The notes under the pieces are model-generated. The model worked only from the letters and a program-made list of their open reading frames with translations, ran no database searches and was not told where the DNA came from. Source: Candidatus Doudnabacteria bacterium (GTDB taxonomy: Bacteria > Patescibacteriota > Doudnabacteria > UBA920 > O2-02-FULL-48-8). From it: a DNA stretch of 64,000 nt. How positions within the stretch are numbered: position 1 is the first letter of the stretch; each line of letters begins with the position of its first letter. Below, in pieces: positions 9,340-57,863 of the stretch. The position numbers and the translations under genes were made by a program. Location of the stretch: positions 173,739 to 237,738 of the forward strand of contig JACPKU010000006.1 of the NCBI GenBank assembly GCA_016186915.1, read 5' to 3'.

Positions 9340-11403
<2,064 letters not shown>

Positions 11404-11439: not shown

Positions 11440-12579
11440 CTACCTAATTTCCGCGTTAAATTGCTTCTTTGTTTCTTCAATCAGCTTGTTTTGCAGAGGC
11501 TCGATTTCTTCGGTTTTGAGCGTCCTCTCAATACTGCGGTAAACCACTCGATAAGTGTAGCTTAATTGGTCCTTGCCGAACTTTTCTTCGTTCTCATACT
11601 TATCCAAAAGCCTGACTTCTTCCACCAAATCGCCGCCAATATCTCGAATTAAATCGAAATATATATTCGGCTCAAAGCCTTTATCCACGATGAAAGAAAT
11701 ATCACGCGTGATCGGAGGAAACTTGCTGACTTCCTGAAACTTTTGCCGAAGTTTCAATTGTTTAACGACGCGCGGATCTTGCGACCAGAGTAACCTGATA
11801 TCTGGGAGATCCATACTGGCAATCGCCAGCCTTTCTAAGCCAAACCCAAACGCCCAGCCATTCCACTTGGAAGAATCCACTCCCAATTTTTCCAAAACCG
11901 TGGCCTTAACCACGCCACTTCCCAAAACTTCGATCCATTTACCTGCTTTTTCTACTTCCAACTCTAGACTAGGATCCGTGTAGGGAAAGGTATCGAGGTT
12001 AAAACGGCATTTTACATTCTCACCGAAAACAGCTTTCGCGATGTCAGTTTCCACTTGTTTTAAATCTTGGGTCCCAATAACTCTTTGCGCTTTGGGCGCC
12101 AGAAACCAGCCGTCAATCTGATGAAACACGTTCATATGATGCCGGTCGATTTCGTCTTTACGGTAAACTTTGCCGAAACAAAACGCGCCGACTGGCCGCC
12201 CCGCGGCCATTCTTTTTTTTACTCCTTCGTTCCGCATATGGTAAAACCACATTACCGTGGTGTGGGTCCGCAAAATGTTAGTTGCGTTGACGTAATACGT
12301 ATCGGATTTTGATCGCACCGGGTGATCTATTGGAAAATCAAAGAGATCAAAGCTGACGTCCGTGGGGACAATTTCCGGCACCTGAATAGTGTCGAAGTCG
12401 TGAAAGTCTGGCAAAGCCAGAAATCGTTGGACCATTTCATAGATCGGGCTGCCTTTAGTCCGCGACAAATCAGGCATATTTAAAAACCGCAGCATGCGTT
12501 TAGCGTCTGCGTCTGTTCTTTTTTCAAGCTGTTTTTTCAATTTTACCTCTTCAGGTGATTCAATAACTATATTACTCAT
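11440..12579 (-). CDS. pheS: Phenylalanine--tRNA ligase alpha-type catalytic subunit with a C-terminal FDX-ACB anticodon-binding domain (mitochondrial FARS2-like architecture)
   Basis: Class II motifs are present (FPYTDPSLELEV, GWAFGFGLERLAIA). The C-terminal roughly 95 aa (FPPITRDISFIV...IGGDLVEEVRLLDKY...YTYRVVYRSIERTL) closely matches the FDX-ACB domain of monomeric mitochondrial PheRS. There is no N-terminal coiled coil. Confidence 0.8.
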   Translation of the reverse strand: MSNIVIESPEEVKLKKQLEKRTDADAKRMLRFLNMPDLSRTKGSPIYEMVQRFLALPDFHDFDTIQVPEIVPTDVSFDLFDFPIDHPVRSKSDTYYVNATNILRTHTTVMWFYHMRNEGVKKRMAAGRPVGAFCFGKVYRKDEIDRHHMNVFHQIDGWFLAPKAQRVIGTQDLKQVETDIAKAVFGENVKCRFNLDTFPYTDPSLELEVEKAGKWIEVLGSGVVKATVLEKLGVDSSKWNGWAFGFGLERLAIASMDLPDIRLLWSQDPRVVKQLKLRQKFQEVSKFPPITRDISFIVDKGFEPNIYFDLIRDIGGDLVEEVRLLDKYENEEKFGKDQLSYTYRVVYRSIERTLKTEEIEPLQNKLIEETKKQFNAEIR

Positions 12580-12979
12580 GGTTTATCATATCCTTTGTGA
12601 ACTCGCTTCCTGGTTGAACGTCATCTTTTAACACTAAAATCTTTGGCTCTCTACTCTGGTCCAGCCCCAATTCAAATCCGGAAACTATCATGCCCCGACT
12701 TTCCACACCCCTGATCGTGGCTGTTTGCAAAATAAAAGGTTCGTGGGCTTCACTATGTACGTTCCTTGGTATACTGGCGCCGGGTAGAGCCAAGACTACT
12801 GTGTCGCCGACATCAAAATTGTAAGCTCCACATACCACAGGATAAATCGTCTCCCTGCCATCTGTCAATTCTACTATTCTTAATCTGTCCGCATTGGGAT
12901 GCTTTTCAATTCTAATTACCTTTGCTGAAATAATATTTGCTTGGTCGAATCCCAATAATTTTTTTAGCCAGTTGATCAT
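12572..12979 (-). CDS. Standalone tRNA-binding domain protein (PheT N-terminal / EMAP-Myf type)
   Basis: The motifs KHPNADRL, VCGAYN and TIRGVESRGMIVS identify the domain. It is 135 aa and overlaps the pheS start by 8 nt. Confidence 0.7.
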   Translation of the reverse strand: MINWLKKLLGFDQANIISAKVIRIEKHPNADRLRIVELTDGRETIYPVVCGAYNFDVGDTVVLALPGASIPRNVHSEAHEPFILQTATIRGVESRGMIVSGFELGLDQSREPKILVLKDDVQPGSEFTKDMINHE

Positions 12980-13734
12980 TTAGTTATGGCCTTAATCAAT
13001 AAAAACCTGGGCAACCTGGTGATATATTCAACCTCTGGATTGCGCTTGAGAAACCCTTCCGGCAATTCCCGTGGTTCCCACATCTGTTCTACAACAAAAC
13101 CAGCATCGCGCAGAGATTGGGAATAATCACTTAAAGTTCTGTGGTAATAAGGTACTTTGATCGGCGTGCGGTCCTCCTGCCTCATGCTGCGGCCGGTTTG
13201 AAAATAATCCCAAGCTAAGCCTTTTGGTTGCCGCAAAAAAATTTTGTCCCGCAATGTTTTATATAATCTCATGGTGGGGTAGTTGAATGCCGGATGCAGT
13301 ACTGCCGCGAAAAAAAAGCCGCTGGGCTTTAATACTCGCCTTGATTCGGCTAAAAACGTGTCGAGTGTTTTTAAACTCATCAAAACCATACTGGCCACGA
13401 TCGAATCAAAAGTGTTGCTGGGAAACTCTAACTTTTCCAATAAATCCGTTTGCTTAAAATCTATTTCAGGATAATTGCCTCTCGCCATCTCAATCATCCG
13501 TCCAGAGCCGTCTAGGCCGAGCACAGAGTGTCCCAGAGATTTAAGCTTTTGAGCGTACGTGCCGTCGCCGCAGCCGGCGACCAAAATTTTCATGCTGTCG
13601 CCGCCGGAAAAAATATCATCAAAGGCTTTGTAGAGCAGCAGCTCTTTAAAGTTCCGATGGTTTTGTCGATCGCGTTCAATCAAACTTGCCCACTCTTCTG
13701 CGCTGTCATCCCAGTACTGAATGTCTTCAGTCAT
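12976..13734 (-). CDS. Class I SAM-dependent methyltransferase
   Basis: Motif I reads ILVAGCGDGTY, and there is a post-I acidic residue (LGLDGS). Confidence 0.7.
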   Translation of the reverse strand: MTEDIQYWDDSAEEWASLIERDRQNHRNFKELLLYKAFDDIFSGGDSMKILVAGCGDGTYAQKLKSLGHSVLGLDGSGRMIEMARGNYPEIDFKQTDLLEKLEFPSNTFDSIVASMVLMSLKTLDTFLAESRRVLKPSGFFFAAVLHPAFNYPTMRLYKTLRDKIFLRQPKGLAWDYFQTGRSMRQEDRTPIKVPYYHRTLSDYSQSLRDAGFVVEQMWEPRELPEGFLKRNPEVEYITRLPRFLLIKAITK

Positions 13735-19673: not shown

Positions 19674-19750
19674 TGGCGTCCCCAGAAGGACTCGAACCTT
19701 CGACCTTCTCCTCCGGAGGGAGACGCTCTAATCCACTGAGCTATGGGGAC
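19674..19750 (-). tRNA. tRNA-Arg (anticodon CCG), CCA encoded
   Basis: The reverse complement is GTCCCCATAGCTCAGTGGATTAGAGCGTCTCCCTCCGGAGGAGAAGGTCGAAGGTTCGAGTCCTTCTGGGGACGCCA, which folds as a cloverleaf. Confidence 0.85.
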
Positions 19751-19752
19751 TC

Positions 19753-19782
19753 ATACATTCATACACGACTGTATGAATGTAT
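19753..19782. repeat. Palindromic hairpin repeat, copy 3 (12 bp arms, ATACATTCATAC-ACGACT-GTATGAATGTAT)
   Basis: It overlaps the stop codon of the NYN gene and abuts the tRNA-Arg 5' end. Its loop is inverted relative to copy 1. Confidence 0.7.
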
Positions 19783-33168: not shown

Positions 33169-33720
33169 TTAAAATAAGCTAAAAATACGTCTTAGTTTTT
33201 TAGCAATGTCTATCTCTCTTGCAGTTACTAAGGTCACAAAGGGTCTGATCTCATATACTTCTTTCAAAAAAGTAATCACGTCCTCACAAGGATAAGGATG
33301 TACCCAAGCGCTCTTCTGTAACTGGTGAAACCCAAGTTCCTTAAGTTTCAAACGAAAATGGTCTCTAGCTAACCTAAATTTTTCGGGAATGTCGAATATC
33401 ACCAGCCGCCATTGCTTATCCCACCTCAAAGGTTTTTTTAATTCCAGGTTATCCAAATTATACCTCAATACTTTTTCCTCTCCCTTTTTTGTCAACGTGA
33501 CGACGACTTCGTCTCCCTCATATCCAATCCCAACCATACCCTGTCGTTTCAAATATCCCAGTGTTTGGCTAACTTTCCTCTTATTATATTTATTTTCCAG
33601 TTGTAATTCCTCAGCGATTGCCATAAATACTAAGGGGCCGGCAACTGGGACAGCTAATAACCCCGCCGCCGCTAGCATCAGCAAAATATCTTTTACGATT
33701 TTGGTGTTCTTAACTCTCAT
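33169..33720 (-). CDS. PaaX-family-like regulator: an N-terminal transmembrane segment, a winged-helix region and a PaaX-C / Cas2-VapD-like C-terminal domain
   Basis: It contains LGYLKRQGMVGIGYEGDEVVVTLTKKG and, in the C-terminus, WRLVIFDIPEKFRLARDHFRLKLKELGFHQLQKSAWVHP. Confidence 0.4.
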   Translation of the reverse strand: MRVKNTKIVKDILLMLAAAGLLAVPVAGPLVFMAIAEELQLENKYNKRKVSQTLGYLKRQGMVGIGYEGDEVVVTLTKKGEEKVLRYNLDNLELKKPLRWDKQWRLVIFDIPEKFRLARDHFRLKLKELGFHQLQKSAWVHPYPCEDVITFLKEVYEIRPFVTLVTAREIDIAKKLRRIFSLF

Positions 33721-36339: not shown

Positions 36340-38565
36340 TCATTTTTTTAATATTGCCAAGAATGCTTCCTGCGGTATATCCACTGAACCGACCCGCTTC
36401 AGCCGCTTTTTGCCTTTCTTCTGTTTTTCCAGAAGTTTCATTTTTCTGGTCACATCGCCGCCATAGAGTTTGGCTGTCACGTCTTTGCGCATGGCGGGTA
36501 TGGTTTCGCGAGCGACTATTTTGGATCCGATCGCGGCCTGCAGCGCCACTTCAAACTGCTGTCGGGGAATCACAGTCTTAAGCTTTTCTACCAGCGACCG
36601 CCCTTCTGATTCAGCCACTTCCTTATGGACGATCAACGACAGCGCGTCCACTTTTTCTTGTGCCACCAGAATGTCCAGTTTAACCAGCTCCGCCTCCCTT
36701 AGATCCAAAAGTTCGTAATTCAGAGAAGCGTAGCCAGAGCTGATACTTTTAAGTTTATCATAAAAATCAATAATGATGTTGGCCAGCGGAATTTCAGCGG
36801 TTATCATCACTCGATCCTCTCTGACGTAGTCAGTATTTTTATAAATCCCACGGCGCGCGGTAATCAGTTCCATCACTCCCCCAATGTATTTTTGTGGAAT
36901 CAAAATTTCCACCAGCACCCATGGTTCCTCCACGCTTTCTATGTGTGACGGATCAGGCAATTCGGCCGGGGTGTGGACGATTTTCGAATCCCCATTTTTT
37001 AAATTCACCTTGTATTCCACGGAAGGAGCGGTCAGAATTAAATCGAGATCGTACTCGCGCGACAGCCGTTCCTGCACAATGTCCATATGCAAAAGCCCCA
37101 AAAATCCCGCTCGGAATCCAAACCCGAGAGCGGGTAAATTTTCTGCCTCAAACTCGAGTGCCGCGTCATTGAGCTTGAGTTTGTCCATTGCGTCTCGAAG
37201 CAGCGGGTAGTCGTCGCCGCTGGTCGGAAAGATGCTCGCATAAACCATGGGTTTGACCTGTTTATACCCGGGCAGTGCTTTCGCTGTATTGCTTGATTGG
37301 AGCGTGGTTACTGTATCTCCTACCCGCGCTTTGCGCACTTCTCGCAAGCCGGTCACAATATAGCCGACCTCTCCTGTTGCCAGCTCAATCGCTGGAAACA
37401 ATTTTGGTTTAAAGAAACCAACTTCCAGAGCCTGCGACTGCGTTTTGGTGCCCAACATTTGGATTTTTTCATTTTTTTTCAACTGTCCGTCAACAATTCT
37501 GACAAATATCACCACCCCGCGGTGTTGATCGTACTTTGAATCAAAAATCAAAGCCCGTAGCGGCTGATCCTCTTTTCCGTTCGGTGAGGGAATCCGAGCC
37601 ACTATCTGCTGTAAGATCTCCTCTACGCCCTCGCCGGTTTTGCCGGAAGCAAACAATATGTCCTCTTTCTTAAACCCAAAAACATTAACGATTTCTGCTG
37701 CCGTCTTTTCGCGCTCGGCATTTGGCAGGTCGATTTTATTAACCACGGGAATAATCTTTAATTTATGCTGCTGGGCCAAATGCACGTTGGCAATTGTCTG
37801 CGCTTCTATGCCTTGCGTGGAGTCAACGACCAAAATCGCTCCTTCACAAGCGGCAAGCGAACGGGAAACTTCGTAAGTAAAATCTACGTGTCCGGGGGTA
37901 TCTATTAAATTCAATACGTACACAGACTCAGGCGGACTGGACGCGGACTGGTCGGAATTTATTAGCCTTTTAATTTCAGCTCCATCAGGTCCAAAATTTA
38001 CAAGTAATGCCAGTTTATGCGGGGTTCCCTTTAAATAATTCCATAATTGTGCTTCTTCTTTTCTACCAATAAGCGGCAATGCTTTGATCTCTAAAATTAT
38101 TTTATTATCAACTAGAAAATCTGGACGGTAAACGCCAACCTTCGCGCCCTTATAAGAAACCGTAATCTCTTTTTCCTGAACAAAGGGTATACTTCTCTGT
38201 TTAAGCTCCAGAGCCAATGCTTTTTGATAGACGTTTTCCTTATGACCGCTTCCAAGCTGTTTCCTAACCTCAAAAATCGCACCTCTAACACTATAACTCA
38301 GGTCTTCATAGAGCAGTCCTTTGTCTGCATTAGTCTGTTTGCTGTCAGCGTTAGTCTGCGGCGGTGTCCACTCCATCCGAACTGGCTGCAGCTTAATAGT
38401 AATCCCCCGCTCGCGCTCCAAATCCATGGTGTCCAAAAGCTGGTCCTTCATCTCCCGTTTGGCCAAAGTGTGCGTCACTTCCAAAAGCCGATCCGCCAGC
38501 GTGGACTTGCCGTGATCAATGTGGGCAATGATGCAAAAATTACGGATTTTTTCTGCTGCAGACAT
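36340..38565 (-). CDS. lepA: Elongation factor 4 (LepA) carrying an in-frame, roughly 140 aa GxxExxY (PD-(D/E)xK superfamily) domain insertion in the G domain
   Basis: LepA blocks are present (IIAHIDHGKSTLADRLL, DTPGHVDFTYEVSRS, the C-terminal LepA_C KMKLLEKQKKGKKRLK). Between GITIKLQPVRMEW and LNLIDTPGH lies an insert reading GAIFEVRKQLGSGHKENVYQKALALEL...YRPDFLVDNKIILEIKA...AQLWNYLK. The start is taken at MSAAEKIRNF, with the RBS GAGGG. Confidence 0.8.
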   Translation of the reverse strand: MSAAEKIRNFCIIAHIDHGKSTLADRLLEVTHTLAKREMKDQLLDTMDLERERGITIKLQPVRMEWTPPQTNADSKQTNADKGLLYEDLSYSVRGAIFEVRKQLGSGHKENVYQKALALELKQRSIPFVQEKEITVSYKGAKVGVYRPDFLVDNKIILEIKALPLIGRKEEAQLWNYLKGTPHKLALLVNFGPDGAEIKRLINSDQSASSPPESVYVLNLIDTPGHVDFTYEVSRSLAACEGAILVVDSTQGIEAQTIANVHLAQQHKLKIIPVVNKIDLPNAEREKTAAEIVNVFGFKKEDILFASGKTGEGVEEILQQIVARIPSPNGKEDQPLRALIFDSKYDQHRGVVIFVRIVDGQLKKNEKIQMLGTKTQSQALEVGFFKPKLFPAIELATGEVGYIVTGLREVRKARVGDTVTTLQSSNTAKALPGYKQVKPMVYASIFPTSGDDYPLLRDAMDKLKLNDAALEFEAENLPALGFGFRAGFLGLLHMDIVQERLSREYDLDLILTAPSVEYKVNLKNGDSKIVHTPAELPDPSHIESVEEPWVLVEILIPQKYIGGVMELITARRGIYKNTDYVREDRVMITAEIPLANIIIDFYDKLKSISSGYASLNYELLDLREAELVKLDILVAQEKVDALSLIVHKEVAESEGRSLVEKLKTVIPRQQFEVALQAAIGSKIVARETIPAMRKDVTAKLYGGDVTRKMKLLEKQKKGKKRLKRVGSVDIPQEAFLAILKK
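37915..38367 (-). other. Inserted GxxExxY nuclease-fold domain within lepA
   Basis: It shows the signature G-H-K-E-N-V-Y and the downstream D...E.K-like blocks of the PDDEXK_3/GxxExxY family. The LepA reading frame continues uninterrupted. Confidence 0.7.
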
Positions 38566-38567
38566 GG

Positions 38568-40187
38568 TTATTCCCTCGTATACCAAGCACTATTAATATT
38601 ACGAGAAAATTTGATGAGCATTGATTTAAGAAGGTTAACCAGACCATGCGTTTCCGCCAGCCCGCTAAACCAGGTTATTCCCAAATAAATCACAAGACCG
38701 ACGAGTGACGCTCCAGCGGCTTGGGTAAACACCCCGACATAGGTCTGCATGTTAACCAGCGGAGCAATCAAATACAAAGATACATAAGCGCCAGCAGCAG
38801 ACAGAGCCGATCCAATCACAATCTTTAAACTATTGATGATCAAGTATTCGTCATGGATGTGACCGATTTTTTTATGCAACTCCATAACTAGCATAACTAA
38901 GTGAATAATACTGGTCAGGGAAAACGCGATCGCCATGCCAGGAATGCCGAATCTTCTGACAAAGAAATAAGTGGCGAAAACATTTACTACGATAACAATA
39001 AGACCAATGATTACCGGGATAGCGGTATTGTGCCGGGCATAAAACGCTCGAGTGAACAAAGGGGCCAGCGCCTGGGCAAACAGGGAGACCACAAATAATC
39101 CGAGTGTTAAAGACACCACGCGCGTATCCGCAAAAGTAAAGCTGGTATTTTCTCCAATTCCCAACACCAACCTGACTATCTGGGCACGCAGAATAAGCAT
39201 CAATACGGACAGCGGAATGATAAAATATAAAATCTGAATCGTGGTTCTGGCGAGAACATCCTTAAATTTTTGATCGTCGCGCTGGTTGAAGTATTCCGAC
39301 AAGGTTGGAAAAACCGCAATGGCGGCCGAGATGGCAAAAATGCTTAAAAACACCGCCTGCAAATTGTTAGCGTAATAAAAGACCGACAACGAGCCGGTGC
39401 CTAAGAACGATCCAAAAATCGTGGCCACCAAAAGGGTCACCTGGCTGGTGCCCATGGAAAAAATCCTTGGCCAATACAATTTCCAAAATTGGATGAATCC
39501 GGAGTCACGCAGCGCCAGCACCAAGGAATAACGGAAGCCCATAAAAAACACTTGCGGTAGTTGAATGAGAAAATGCAGGAGAGCTCCGATAACCACGCCG
39601 ATGGGCAAACCTATTGGTCCCATGATCGGATACAACACCAGCACGCCAAATATAATGGACAAGTTATAAACCAAAGGCGCCGCGGCAACCACTGCAAATT
39701 TTTTATAGGTATGGAGAATGCTGGAAGTGATCGAGGAAAGGGACAGAAACAGAGGAGAAAAAAGCAAAATCTTGGTAAAACTTCTGGTCAGTTCATAAGC
39801 TTCACCAGTAAATCCCGGGGCAATAACCCTAACCAGCGGATCGATAAATAAAAGCGCGAACAAGGATATGCCAATCACTCCAAAAATCGTGCTGTTCGCA
39901 ATACCTGACGCGATCCGAAAAGCCCGGTCTCGATCTTTAAACAAGTAGTCGGAAAATACCGGAATAAATGCCACTGACACGGTGCCCAAAAAAAGCAGAT
40001 TAAAAATAAAGTCCGGAATCCGGAAAGCCGCGAAATAGGCGTCGATCAAAACACTGGTCCCGAACCGGTTGGAAAACACCGCGTCCCGAATAAGCCCCGA
40101 GAATTTGGCCAAGAGCGAAAAAACCGCGATGATCACGGTTGCTTTGGTAAGCGAATCAGATTTAGTATTCAACAACCTGGCAATCAT
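38568..40187 (-). CDS. murJ: Lipid II flippase MurJ (MviN)
   Basis: It is a 539 aa protein with 14 transmembrane segments. Its N-terminus reads ...ATVIIAVFSLLAKFSGLIRDAVFSNRFGTS. Confidence 0.8.
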   Translation of the reverse strand: MIARLLNTKSDSLTKATVIIAVFSLLAKFSGLIRDAVFSNRFGTSVLIDAYFAAFRIPDFIFNLLFLGTVSVAFIPVFSDYLFKDRDRAFRIASGIANSTIFGVIGISLFALLFIDPLVRVIAPGFTGEAYELTRSFTKILLFSPLFLSLSSITSSILHTYKKFAVVAAAPLVYNLSIIFGVLVLYPIMGPIGLPIGVVIGALLHFLIQLPQVFFMGFRYSLVLALRDSGFIQFWKLYWPRIFSMGTSQVTLLVATIFGSFLGTGSLSVFYYANNLQAVFLSIFAISAAIAVFPTLSEYFNQRDDQKFKDVLARTTIQILYFIIPLSVLMLILRAQIVRLVLGIGENTSFTFADTRVVSLTLGLFVVSLFAQALAPLFTRAFYARHNTAIPVIIGLIVIVVNVFATYFFVRRFGIPGMAIAFSLTSIIHLVMLVMELHKKIGHIHDEYLIINSLKIVIGSALSAAGAYVSLYLIAPLVNMQTYVGVFTQAAGASLVGLVIYLGITWFSGLAETHGLVNLLKSMLIKFSRNINSAWYTRE

Positions 40188-55331: not shown

Positions 55332-57863
55332 TTATCCTGTCCTTTCAGTGGATGCAATACCGCTTTTTACAGGCGAGCCGAGTCGAGTACGCCTTAAAAT
55401 TTCTTCTTCTACCTCGGACTTGGGACGTCCGTATTTTAACTTGGAAAGATTCTTGATTGTTTGAGCCACTCGCGGATCGCCTTGAGTCGGTTTCGGATAA
55501 GTTTCCATGCTGAAAGGGCGGGACGCGGTGCCGTCAATCATAAGTTTGACGTAAGCATTGTATCTGTCAATATTGACAACATCAAATTCGTTAAACACCG
55601 GAGCAAACTCCTTGCCCATAATTTCCGCATCCTCTACCCCGATGCGAAAAGTAATCATAGTGCCGGCATTGCCAAACACCGCGTCTCGCATCCGGCTGTC
55701 CAAAGTATTGCTTCCTTCTTTTTCTGTGGTGAGCTGGGAAATAAACTGATGGGCCATAATCAAATCCAGCCGATATTTTCTGGCCTCAGACAAAATCGTG
55801 GCAAAGCTGTCTGTGACAAAATTTTGAAACTCATCCACATACAGATAGAAGTCCCGTCTTTGATCTTCCGGCTGATCAGCGCGCGACATCGCCGCCATCT
55901 GGAGCTTAGAAACGACAATCAACCCCAAAAGTTTGGCGTTGACCTCGCCGGTCTTGCCTTTGGAAAGGTTGATCAGCAATATCTTGCCTTCATCCATGAC
56001 CTTGCGGAAATCAAACGAGCTGGTGGGCTGGCCGATGATGTTGCGCATCATTTCGTTTTCCACAAATCTGCCGACTTTGGAAATCAAATACCCCAACATT
56101 TCGGACTTGTGAAAGTCCGAAGTTTTCGCCATTTCTTTTTCCCAAAACGCCCGCACCACTGGATCTTGAACTTTCGAAAGCTTGTAGCGCTGAAAAGCGG
56201 TGTCTGTAAACATCCTAGGGATATCCGCGATGGTTCCCGGATTTTGTTTGTCTTCCAAAAGCGTGAGCATGACGTTGCGCATATTATGCTCAAACATCGG
56301 CCCAATCATTTCCGGCGGGAACAGCTTATAAAAAATCGAGATCATTTCCTGAATTACGAAATCTTTTTGCTCCGCTCCTTTGGCTTCCAGCATATTAAGC
56401 CCCACCGGCCGATCAAGATCAAACGGTTCAAACAAAATCACGTCGTCCGCGCGCTCTTTGGGGATGTATGAAAGCAGGTCGTCCACCAGATCGCCGTGCG
56501 GATCCACCACGCACAACCCTTCGCCTTGGCGAATGTCCTGAATCGCCAGGTTTTTCATCAGTTCGGTTTTGCCCGTCCCAGTGCGGCCAATAATATACAT
56601 GTGTCTTCTACGGTCATCGTGTTTGATGTACACTTTTGTCTCCACTCCGCGGTAAAGGCTTTTGCCCAAAAGCAATCCTTCCTCCGGCAGATTATGAGGC
56701 GGCACGCCCTTTTTTGAACCCAGCCACTTGATATGCGGCGTTTCCGTGAATCGGGTTGGCAAATGCCAGATGCTGGCCAGTTCTTCGGTGTTCAGGATTT
56801 CCCTGCTTCCCCGAAAAATCCGAAAAATAAAATCAGTCACCACCCGCTTAACTGGTTTATGTTTGACCTTAAATCCGTTAAACGGCGGCATGGAATATTG
56901 CATAAACGAGGAGAGAATGTTTTTCAGATGCGCCTGCGCCGCTCCCTCACTGCTCGAAGAGGCGACTAATCTTAAATTATACGTAAACCCGGCTCGCGAG
57001 GCTTTTTCCTCAAAACGTTTGACAATCTCCTGCTGCATCGGGGTGAGCGTCAGAGGTTTTTGCCTTGAGTTTTGTGGCAAAAGGTCTGTTTGGCTTTTCT
57101 TTTTTCCGGACAGCAATTCGTTAAACGCGTTTCCTAAAACATCAAAAGTATTTAAAACAAATTTTTGGCTGCCGCTGGCTGTAACTCTGCCCGGATCCTT
57201 GCCCTGTTGTATCTGCGAAGCCAAGCGCCTGGGTTTTGCCTGCCAGTTGCTGCCCGCGGGGCTGATAATCAGTTGAATTGCCGCCCCTTCATCCTCGGTC
57301 AACTTGGAGAGGCTGTTGGTTAAAGAATTGAGCGGGTCGGTTTCTGTCTCTTTGTAAGTGCGGATAGGAAAAATGTAGTTTTTCTGCAGTCCCAGCTCCA
57401 CGGCCGCCACTGCAGAGTCCGGTTTAAAAAGTTTGTATGGTTTGATCGTTTCTATCTGGGCAGTTGGATATTGCGCGTGCAGTTGTTTTTCAATCAATGC
57501 TTGAAGTTTCTTTGGTACATTCAAATAAAACGAAATTTTCTTGCCAACTGCCGCAATCTCCAAGCTGATATTCTCATTAATGCCCAAAAGACGGTTGAGG
57601 TCTCCTTTTTCCCTGACATCCGCAATGGTTGTAAAAAATTGCTCAGCAATGCTGATTACGTCCTTCTCTTCTTTTTTAGGATCATTGTCCTTTGCCTCGC
57701 TTTCTTTGGGAACCTGCACCTCCAAAAACACAGAATTTTTTATTCGGGGCACCCAGCCTTTTTTGCGCGTAGATTCCTCAATTAAAAAATACAAAAGCAG
57801 GCCGACCAAAATAAGTATGGCGACTAATAACAACCAGAAAAAAACAATGGCGGCACTAGACAT
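55332..57863 (-). CDS. Membrane-anchored TraD/TraG/VirD4-family (type IV coupling-protein-like, FtsK/HerA-class) P-loop ATPase
   Basis: It has an N-terminal transmembrane segment, a Walker A (HMYIIGRTGTGKTELMKN), a Walker B (FYLYVDEFQNF) and a TraD-like C-terminus. It is 843 aa. Confidence 0.6.
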   Translation of the reverse strand: MSSAAIVFFWLLLVAILILVGLLLYFLIEESTRKKGWVPRIKNSVFLEVQVPKESEAKDNDPKKEEKDVISIAEQFFTTIADVREKGDLNRLLGINENISLEIAAVGKKISFYLNVPKKLQALIEKQLHAQYPTAQIETIKPYKLFKPDSAVAAVELGLQKNYIFPIRTYKETETDPLNSLTNSLSKLTEDEGAAIQLIISPAGSNWQAKPRRLASQIQQGKDPGRVTASGSQKFVLNTFDVLGNAFNELLSGKKKSQTDLLPQNSRQKPLTLTPMQQEIVKRFEEKASRAGFTYNLRLVASSSSEGAAQAHLKNILSSFMQYSMPPFNGFKVKHKPVKRVVTDFIFRIFRGSREILNTEELASIWHLPTRFTETPHIKWLGSKKGVPPHNLPEEGLLLGKSLYRGVETKVYIKHDDRRRHMYIIGRTGTGKTELMKNLAIQDIRQGEGLCVVDPHGDLVDDLLSYIPKERADDVILFEPFDLDRPVGLNMLEAKGAEQKDFVIQEMISIFYKLFPPEMIGPMFEHNMRNVMLTLLEDKQNPGTIADIPRMFTDTAFQRYKLSKVQDPVVRAFWEKEMAKTSDFHKSEMLGYLISKVGRFVENEMMRNIIGQPTSSFDFRKVMDEGKILLINLSKGKTGEVNAKLLGLIVVSKLQMAAMSRADQPEDQRRDFYLYVDEFQNFVTDSFATILSEARKYRLDLIMAHQFISQLTTEKEGSNTLDSRMRDAVFGNAGTMITFRIGVEDAEIMGKEFAPVFNEFDVVNIDRYNAYVKLMIDGTASRPFSMETYPKPTQGDPRVAQTIKNLSKLKYGRPKSEVEEEILRRTRLGSPVKSGIASTERTG

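Follow-up and report, generated by a model that had tools for sequence, protein, structure and literature searches.

A predicted single-chain, mitochondrial-type phenylalanyl-tRNA synthetase in Doudnabacteria and related Patescibacteria

Can a bacterium charge its phenylalanine tRNA with a phenylalanyl-tRNA synthetase (PheRS) made of a single chain? In textbooks and in the way the families are defined (TIGR00469; PheRS-M in PMC11580382 and PMC10810186), the single-chain enzyme counts as a mitochondrial peculiarity and the (alpha-beta)2 enzyme as the bacterial form, and papers that classify aminoacyl-tRNA synthetases (aaRSs) give PheRS-M as the mitochondrial form (PMC11580382, PMC10810186). The question is raised by two overlapping open reading frames (ORFs) in a 64-kb stretch of contig JACPKU010000006.1 from a Candidatus Doudnabacteria bacterium, which belongs to the candidate phyla radiation (CPR). 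This whole stretch is hereafter called the window, and negative results on window proteins or DNA apply to those 64 kb. Both ORFs, at 11440-12579 (379 aa) and 12572-12979 (135 aa) on the minus strand, are present exactly where an original prediction for this DNA had placed them. The 379-aa protein is 100% identical to the NCBI entry "hypothetical protein HYW51_02385" of Candidatus Doudnabacteria bacterium, and the 135-aa protein is HYW51_02390 of the same metagenome-assembled genome (MAG).

Domains, fold and conserved motifs of the fused protein

The larger ORF and its parts are as follows.

11440..12579, minus strand: predicted single-chain PheRS gene, 379 aa, consisting of an N-terminal extension, a class-IIc catalytic core and an FDX-ACB domain (Pfam, NCBIfam, PDB match, AlphaFold)
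12448..12579, minus strand: N-terminal 44-residue extension, two short helices without a coiled coil (model, ortholog alignment, no PF02912 match)
11758..12447, minus strand: catalytic domain, aa 45-274, bearing motifs 1-3 of class II, FPYT as a strand of the Phe pocket, and GWAFG including the specificity Ala (PF01409, 183 bits)
11443..11727, minus strand: FDX-ACB (B8-type) anticodon-binding domain, aa 285-379 (PF03147, 82.5 bits)

Pfam assigned aa 45-274 to tRNA-synt_2d (PF01409; E 7.5e-54) and aa 285-379 to FDX-ACB (PF03147; E 3.1e-23), and found no N-terminal coiled-coil domain (PF02912) in the 379-aa protein, to which E. coli PheS aligned from PheS residue 108 on only. The best sequence match among solved structures was human mitochondrial PheRS (mtPheRS), with about 200 bits and E 1e-58; the bacterial alpha subunits in the PDB scored at most 123 bits and covered the core only. 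An AlphaFold (AF2) model of the whole chain (pLDDT 92.3, pTM 0.87) superposed on the closed human mtPheRS structure 3CMQ with a TM-score of 0.79, 3.0 Å and 31% identity over about 390 columns, domain arrangement included, while the fit to the open, tRNA-bound structure 3TUP was poorer (TM 0.58). By sequence, the FDX-ACB domain is nearest to that of other fused forms (33-41% identity, 62-85 bits), and the B8 domain of E. coli PheT is clearly more distant (27.5%, 42 bits).

Alignment of 120 orthologs revealed 133 invariant columns and a mean column identity of 73%. In the sets of 47-120 orthologs compared, motifs 1-3 of class II did not vary, nor did the FP(Y)T strand of the Phe pocket or GWAFG, which holds the specificity alanine, and this level of conservation is, as far as sequence can tell, that of an essential enzyme. 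The N-terminal extension carries a motif, R..R.L..PDL.R..GSP, that is kept in CPR orthologs and in a relative from an Oligoflexia MAG (P0125), to whose N-terminus the extension is 39% identical.

Like the mitochondrial enzymes (human FARS2, yeast MSF1; PheRS-M), the window protein combines a class-IIc core and a C-terminal FDX-ACB domain in one chain, with neither a coiled coil nor an editing domain. It differs from them in lacking the roughly 30-residue mitochondrial insertion after motif 2, in having the conserved, CPR-specific 44-residue N-terminal extension and, since it is a bacterial (CPR) protein, in having no targeting peptide; overall identity is only about 31%, the score falls under the TIGR00469 cutoff, and in the window lineage the gene is apparently co-transcribed with that of a B2-like oligonucleotide-binding (OB) fold protein. 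With the canonical (alpha-beta)2 PheRS it shares a homologous core (33% identity to E. coli PheS) and an FDX-ACB domain corresponding to PheT B8, and the neighbouring 135-aa protein corresponds to PheT B2. Unlike in the canonical enzyme, the alpha coiled coil is missing, alpha itself carries B8, B2 has a gene of its own upstream of pheS, and no B1, B3/4 (editing), B5 or B6/7 occurs anywhere in the window. A tblastn search of the window with E. coli PheT left B3/4, B5 and B6/7 unmatched, with matches confined to residues 45-127 (in the 135-aa ORF) and 692-794 (at the C-terminus of the fused PheS), and none of the large window ORFs is a PheT.

Because of its domain content, its best PDB match, the whole-chain fold and the invariant catalytic motifs, we read the window protein as a single-chain, editing-domain-free, mitochondrial-type PheRS, an assignment that these sequence comparisons and the structural model strongly support. 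The original prediction had already proposed such an enzyme, and the domains, PDB match, fold and motifs bear it out. Its description of a PheS without the bacterial coiled coil and ending in FDX-ACB agrees with Pfam (no PF02912; PF03147 at the C-terminus), and its statement that no full beta subunit follows pheS held in the tblastn search with E. coli PheT, for the 64-kb window only. It had also called the FDX-ACB domain "near-identical" to that of FARS2, which was overstated: over the structural superposition identity comes to 31%, and within FDX-ACB to about 38%, though the motifs are shared.

Distribution and relatives of the fused enzyme

Homolog searches returned thousands of proteins that are about 380 aa long and share both domains, and clustering at 50% left 218 representatives below E 1e-30. 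The best 120 homologs were all about 380 aa long, carried the same two Pfam domains and were 69-75% identical to the window protein, the family lying at about 60-75%. In a species-level scan of GTDB species representatives, which yielded 80 loci, every locus belonged to the Patescibacteria (80/80), with Yanofsky-, Giovannoni-, Zambryski-, Kaiser-, Vogel- and Doudnabacteria as well as Paceibacteria among them, and a search started from a deeper relative brought in Wolfe-, Staskawicz-, Nealson- and Portnoybacteria. The gyrB gene lay directly downstream of the fused pheS in 29 of the 80 loci and within 6 kb in 60; the other neighbours (nusG, rplK, rpsB, tsf, prfA and thrS) are likewise housekeeping genes.

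Two variations on this layout were observed. Several longer proteins carry the single-chain PheRS module at the C-terminus, preceded by 340-660 aa (P0153, 872 aa; P0156, 704 aa; P0199, 690 aa; P0250, 669 aa; P0197, 761 aa). At one locus (L097, 4422-5559; MAG GCA_021811585.1) the fused pheS was called as two ORFs of 195 and 173 aa, a split to be put down to a frameshift, to pseudogene formation or to faulty assembly.

A literature search on monomeric PheRS in bacteria or CPR, and on pheT in the latter, found no prior description. The kind of enzyme is already known, and its mechanism is probably that of the known one; new are the host range, the fact that throughout a large radiation it apparently replaces the canonical enzyme, and a lineage-specific OB partner.

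Short single-chain PheRSs of 345-370 aa also pass the pheS_mito cutoff and, where their context was seen, are encoded on huge-phage-like contigs. On a 494-kb contig (L087; JGI 3300024262 Ga0210003_1000004) the gene, at 10001-11104, stands beside a terminase, T4 Rnl1, PNKP and another aaRS gene. On contigs of this kind, L098 (8001-9065) among the loci, the neighbours were a dNMP kinase, a dCMP deaminase and PcfJ, with a NUMOD endonuclease also found, and the GenBank phage LR745206.1 (634 kb) gave a match at 614016-614750. These phage forms have the same two-domain architecture as the CPR enzyme and score above the pheS_mito threshold; they differ from it in length, in being 35-40% identical, and in grouping with eukaryotic forms.

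That grouping comes from a neighbour-joining (NJ) tree rooted on E. coli PheS as sole outgroup, in which all fused forms grouped together and formed two branches. One held the CPR clade with deeper bacterial sequences (P0125 from the Oligoflexia MAG, P0123 and P0129), the other the eukaryotic mitochondrial-type sequences with the short 345-370-aa proteins. The tree is suggestive but too sparse to settle which way the gene passed between bacteria, phages and eukaryotes. It bears on one rival explanation, in which the gene is no ancestral CPR trait and was gained recently, either from a huge phage or, as a FARS2-type gene of the nucleus, from a eukaryote. The architecture is indeed otherwise known from mitochondria, and the short relatives that pass the pheS_mito cutoff do sit on huge-phage-like contigs, but the CPR and Oligoflexia-type sequences formed a tight, deeply separated clade that was not nested in the eukaryote/phage group, the CPR sequences lack the mitochondrial insertion, and the gene is spread over many lineages of Paceibacteria and Doudnabacteria with the pheS-gyrB synteny kept. 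We consider a recent gain of this kind very improbable.

The standalone tRNA-binding protein and its locus

The genes and junctions around the fused pheS are listed here.

12572..12979, minus strand: standalone B2-type OB-fold tRNA-binding protein, 135 aa (PF01588, TIGR00472 positions 43-151, AF2 fold)
12572..12579, minus strand: 8-nt overlap ATGAGTAA between the end of tRNA_bind (stop codon) and the beginning of pheS (start codon) (sequence)
12976..13734, minus strand: class I S-adenosylmethionine (SAM)-dependent methyltransferase gene, generic (its stop overlaps the tRNA_bind start by ATGA)
9340..11349, minus strand: gyrB, which among the downstream neighbours of fused pheS in CPR genomes is the most conserved (ORF and synteny over 80 loci)

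The ATGA overlap and the 8-nt overlap imply that the methyltransferase, tRNA_bind and pheS genes are translationally coupled, and because its stop overlaps the tRNA_bind start, the methyltransferase gene probably opens the transcription unit that the three share. This three-gene arrangement was common, among the loci examined, only to the window and one other (L044); a tRNA-related role of the methyltransferase is conceivable.

The 135-aa protein has PF01588 tRNA_bind as its sole Pfam domain (E 2.7e-15). Against the PheT model TIGR00472 it scored 93.7 bits (cutoff 402.65) and matched positions 43-151 only, which correspond to B2. Its AF2 model is an OB barrel (pLDDT 92) that superposes on B2 of P. 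aeruginosa PheT at 1.7 Å and also resembles the C-domain of YtpR; Trbp111 and EMAPII are more remote. The profile match and the structural match together mark the protein as B2-like, not B1-like. The original prediction, which had described the upstream overlapping gene as encoding nothing more than a 135-aa tRNA_bind domain, was right on that count by Pfam and wrong in calling the domain B1-like. It had further made this protein part of the PheRS architecture, which does not hold generally: the linkage belongs to one Doudnabacteria-type sublineage.

The protein shares the OB fold with YtpR, TapR, Trbp111/CsaA and the B2-TyrRS and LysRS-B2 fusions of CPR, and there is a precedent in the TapR model, a PheT-N-terminal-like protein associated with another aaRS gene. 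Unlike YtpR, TapR and Trbp111, it stays under every curated cutoff. For YtpR (NF045760) it scored 76.5 bits against 100, matching only the C-terminal half (positions 81-185), so that it lacks the YtpR N-terminal domain and departs from the two-domain form of about 200 aa. For TapR (NF045867) the score was 37.6 bits against 120, and the neighbouring gene is pheS, not tyrS; for Trbp111/CsaA (NF007492, PRK10089), a dimeric protein that binds the tRNA elbow, it was 17.5 bits against 150, with a weaker fold match (TM about 0.57, E 1e-4). Unlike other standalone or appended B2 proteins, it is linked specifically to a single-chain pheS. Mukai et al. described many CPR PheRS-beta proteins without a B2 domain, as well as B2-like domains fused to TyrRS and LysRS in CPR (PMC5370408), facts that fit B2 as a mobile, generic tRNA-binding helper.

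The family is small: it comprises about 145 clusters, with lengths of 113-212 aa, and Doudnabacteria supply most of them. The six sampled homologs (54-62% identical) all lie upstream of a fused pheS, five of them immediately, with gyrB following; in the sixth a 2,544-aa RHS gene is inserted before pheS. This insertion, found by comparing L095 (4524 onward; CAZFTX010000006.1) with L009, is an RHS/YD-repeat (SpvB, TEN_YD-shell) toxin-like gene. The block common to the sampled lineage runs helicase, TSP3-repeat protein, (methyltransferase), tRNA_bind, pheS, gyrB. A tRNA_bind-pheS operon conserved across CPR was considered and rejected: in the species-level scan the two genes adjoin in only 2 of 80 loci (L044 and L077), with one more tRNA_bind gene 10 kb off, and in the 77 other species none occurs within 6 kb of pheS. 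In three Doudnabacteria loci (L018, L026, L084) this block is present but the tRNA_bind gene is not. Because it is missing in these three and in 77 of 80 species, any role with PheRS would be non-essential, and the protein is, by its genomic distribution, a lineage-specific accessory that can be lost at the locus. The PheS NJ tree is too star-like to tell a single origin of the pairing from several.

Residues 1-15 of the 135-aa family (12935-12979 in the window) form a conserved amphipathic F/W-LKKLF motif of low pLDDT (about 56), which a variable-length linker separates from the OB fold; this motif might be a docking helix.

These data bear on a second rival, a split minimal alpha-beta enzyme in which the fused chain is alpha and the B2-like protein is an obligate subunit left over from PheT. 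The translational coupling through the 8-nt overlap, the linkage in six of six sampled tRNA_bind homologs, the best profile match to the N-terminal region of PheT, and the possibility that the conserved helix with its linker is a docking element would all suit a two-subunit enzyme. The gene is, however, lacking near pheS in 77 of 80 species and in the three Doudnabacteria with the same synteny, and about 145 tRNA_bind members stand against thousands of fused PheRSs. Human mtPheRS works without a B2-type partner. In E. coli PheRS, B2 is dispensable for aminoacylation (Roy & Ibba 2006, cited in PMC5370408). An obligate second subunit seems quite unlikely to us.

Promoter and terminator scans of the window returned no more matches than shuffled expectation. 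The Rfam scan of the window found tRNAs only, with no T-box or leader upstream of pheS; none of the seven window tRNAs is tRNA-Phe. They include a cluster of Asp-GTC, Met-CAT and Met-CAT at 21328-21692 and tRNA-Arg-CCG at 19674-19750, all on the minus strand. The other window content is that of an ordinary CPR chromosome, with gyrB, nusG, rplA, the F-ATPase operon, murein genes, dnaX, dnaB, cysS, a DUF4012 gene and a type IV secretion system (T4SS) coupling protein. A LepA/EF4 homolog (36340-38586, minus strand, 748 aa) carries a PD-(D/E)XK nuclease domain (PF13366, aa 95-207) inside its GTPase domain, which Pfam splits; by sequence, this could be an endonuclease-type insertion in a housekeeping gene. 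Also on the minus strand are a PaaX_M (Cas2-like domain) protein at 33169-33720, an NYN-domain protein at 19782-20297 and the TrwB/VirD4-type T4SS coupling protein at 55332-57863.

Naming, the beta subunit and the favoured explanation

Several observations tell against reading the fused protein as a self-sufficient PheRS. Its score on the pheS_mito model TIGR00469 is 232.1, below the curated equivalog cutoff of 258.35, and it reaches a comparable 241.8 (cutoff 300) on NF051887, "PheS-related mystery ligase SrmL", so that naming by profile models is ambiguous. The catalytic core taken alone is roughly equidistant, with 35-39% identity to mitochondrial-type enzymes and 33% to E. coli PheS. Canonical PheST occurs in some Paceibacteria, and the B2-like protein found beside the window gene is missing at most loci, including those three of Doudnabacteria.

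The scores admit a third rival, in which the fused protein is an extra SrmL-like "mystery ligase" paralog and the real PheRS is a canonical pheST elsewhere in the genome. SrmL is the best NCBIfam match, though below its cutoff, and the two proteins agree in length class and in the layout of their two domains; the window protein aligns to model positions 21-344 of 349. NCBI annotates all family members as "hypothetical protein" (IMG calls them PheRS alpha chain), some Paceibacteria carry canonical PheST, and our inspection covered 64 kb of the genome. The window protein and all sampled relatives, however, stay under the 300-bit SrmL threshold (195-253 in the ten relatives tested), whereas relatives such as P0121, a CPR protein scoring 264.3, pass pheS_mito. 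Our literature search on SrmL found no paper. The extreme conservation, the housekeeping genomic context and the intact Phe pocket and anticodon-binding domain likewise speak against an extra paralog, and redundancy would be unlikely in genomes of about 1 Mb. Nor is the fused protein a canonical alpha chain by profile, with 158 bits on TIGR00468 (cutoff 237.45), no PF02912 and no pheT nearby.

One fully tabulated genome of the canonical type was available for comparison. In its 866-gene table, Ca. Yanofskyibacterium parasiticum PMX_810_sub shows adjacent canonical pheT and pheS genes, the former with B3/4, CLM, B5 and FDX-ACB and no B2, the latter with the N-terminal domain (PMC10936435 Table S2). 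The domain counts there (PF01409 n=1, PF03147 n=1, PF01588 n=0) mean a canonical enzyme and no fused gene. This suggests an either/or distribution of canonical pheST and the fused gene, a pattern that rests on this one Paceibacteria genome. About 1 Mb of DNA around the fused pheS genes of the 80 loci contained no PheT B3/4, B5 or B6/7 by tblastn; the loci make up about 1.5% of each genome, so that this negative excludes adjacency only. Considering the PMX_810_sub genome, the lack of PheT in that 1 Mb, the conservation typical of an essential gene and the small genomes, we think it highly likely that genomes of the fused type lack pheT. An extra paralog beside a canonical PheST is, on these grounds, unlikely.

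We therefore favour the explanation that the 379-aa protein is the housekeeping PheRS of its host, a self-sufficient, probably monomeric single chain working like FARS2/PheRS-M, and from the sequence comparisons and the model we hold this to be likely. The class-IIc core would activate Phe and transfer it to tRNAPhe, and the C-terminal FDX-ACB domain would read the GAA anticodon after a rotation that takes the enzyme from the closed conformation of the AlphaFold model to an open one with tRNA bound, as human FARS2 does. Lacking B3/4, the enzyme would have no cis-editing of Tyr- or m-Tyr-tRNAPhe. In many Paceibacteria and Doudnabacteria the single-chain form seems to have taken the place of the canonical (alpha-beta)2 enzyme. 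By analogy with Trbp111, YtpR or TapR, the 135-aa B2-type protein probably binds tRNA in trans and may thereby raise the affinity for tRNA, and the enzyme family as a whole would not require it.

A more far-reaching version, which we offer tentatively and think less likely than not, is that a large part of the Patescibacteria (Paceibacteria and Doudnabacteria) has fully replaced the (alpha-beta)2 PheRS, held to be universal in bacteria, with an editing-free single chain, that this fusion shares its origin with the mitochondrial and huge-phage enzymes, that the form is no eukaryotic innovation but an ancient bacterial or phage invention acquired by eukaryotes, and that the leftover PheT B2 domain has become a trans tRNA-binding subunit in Doudnabacteria.

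If the replacement is true, pheS and pheT (TIGR00468/TIGR00472), which serve as markers of genome quality and for phylogeny and belong to the bac120 set, would be systematically missing in these lineages. IMG/JGI names the proteins of about 135 aa (homologs P0279-P0398 of the window gene) "phenylalanyl-tRNA synthetase beta chain"; together with the NCBI label "hypothetical protein" for the fused enzyme, this would lead surveys based on KEGG Orthology (KO) to score pheT as present and to miss the fused enzyme. Being compact and encoded by one gene, with an OB cofactor as an option, such a bacterial PheRS could serve in the engineering of orthogonal synthetase pairs. For the bacteria themselves, the replacement would mean that they translate without PheRS editing of Tyr or m-Tyr, for which the editing-defective PheRS of Mycoplasma is a parallel, and the origin of mitochondrial PheRS would become testable with real bacterial and phage relatives.

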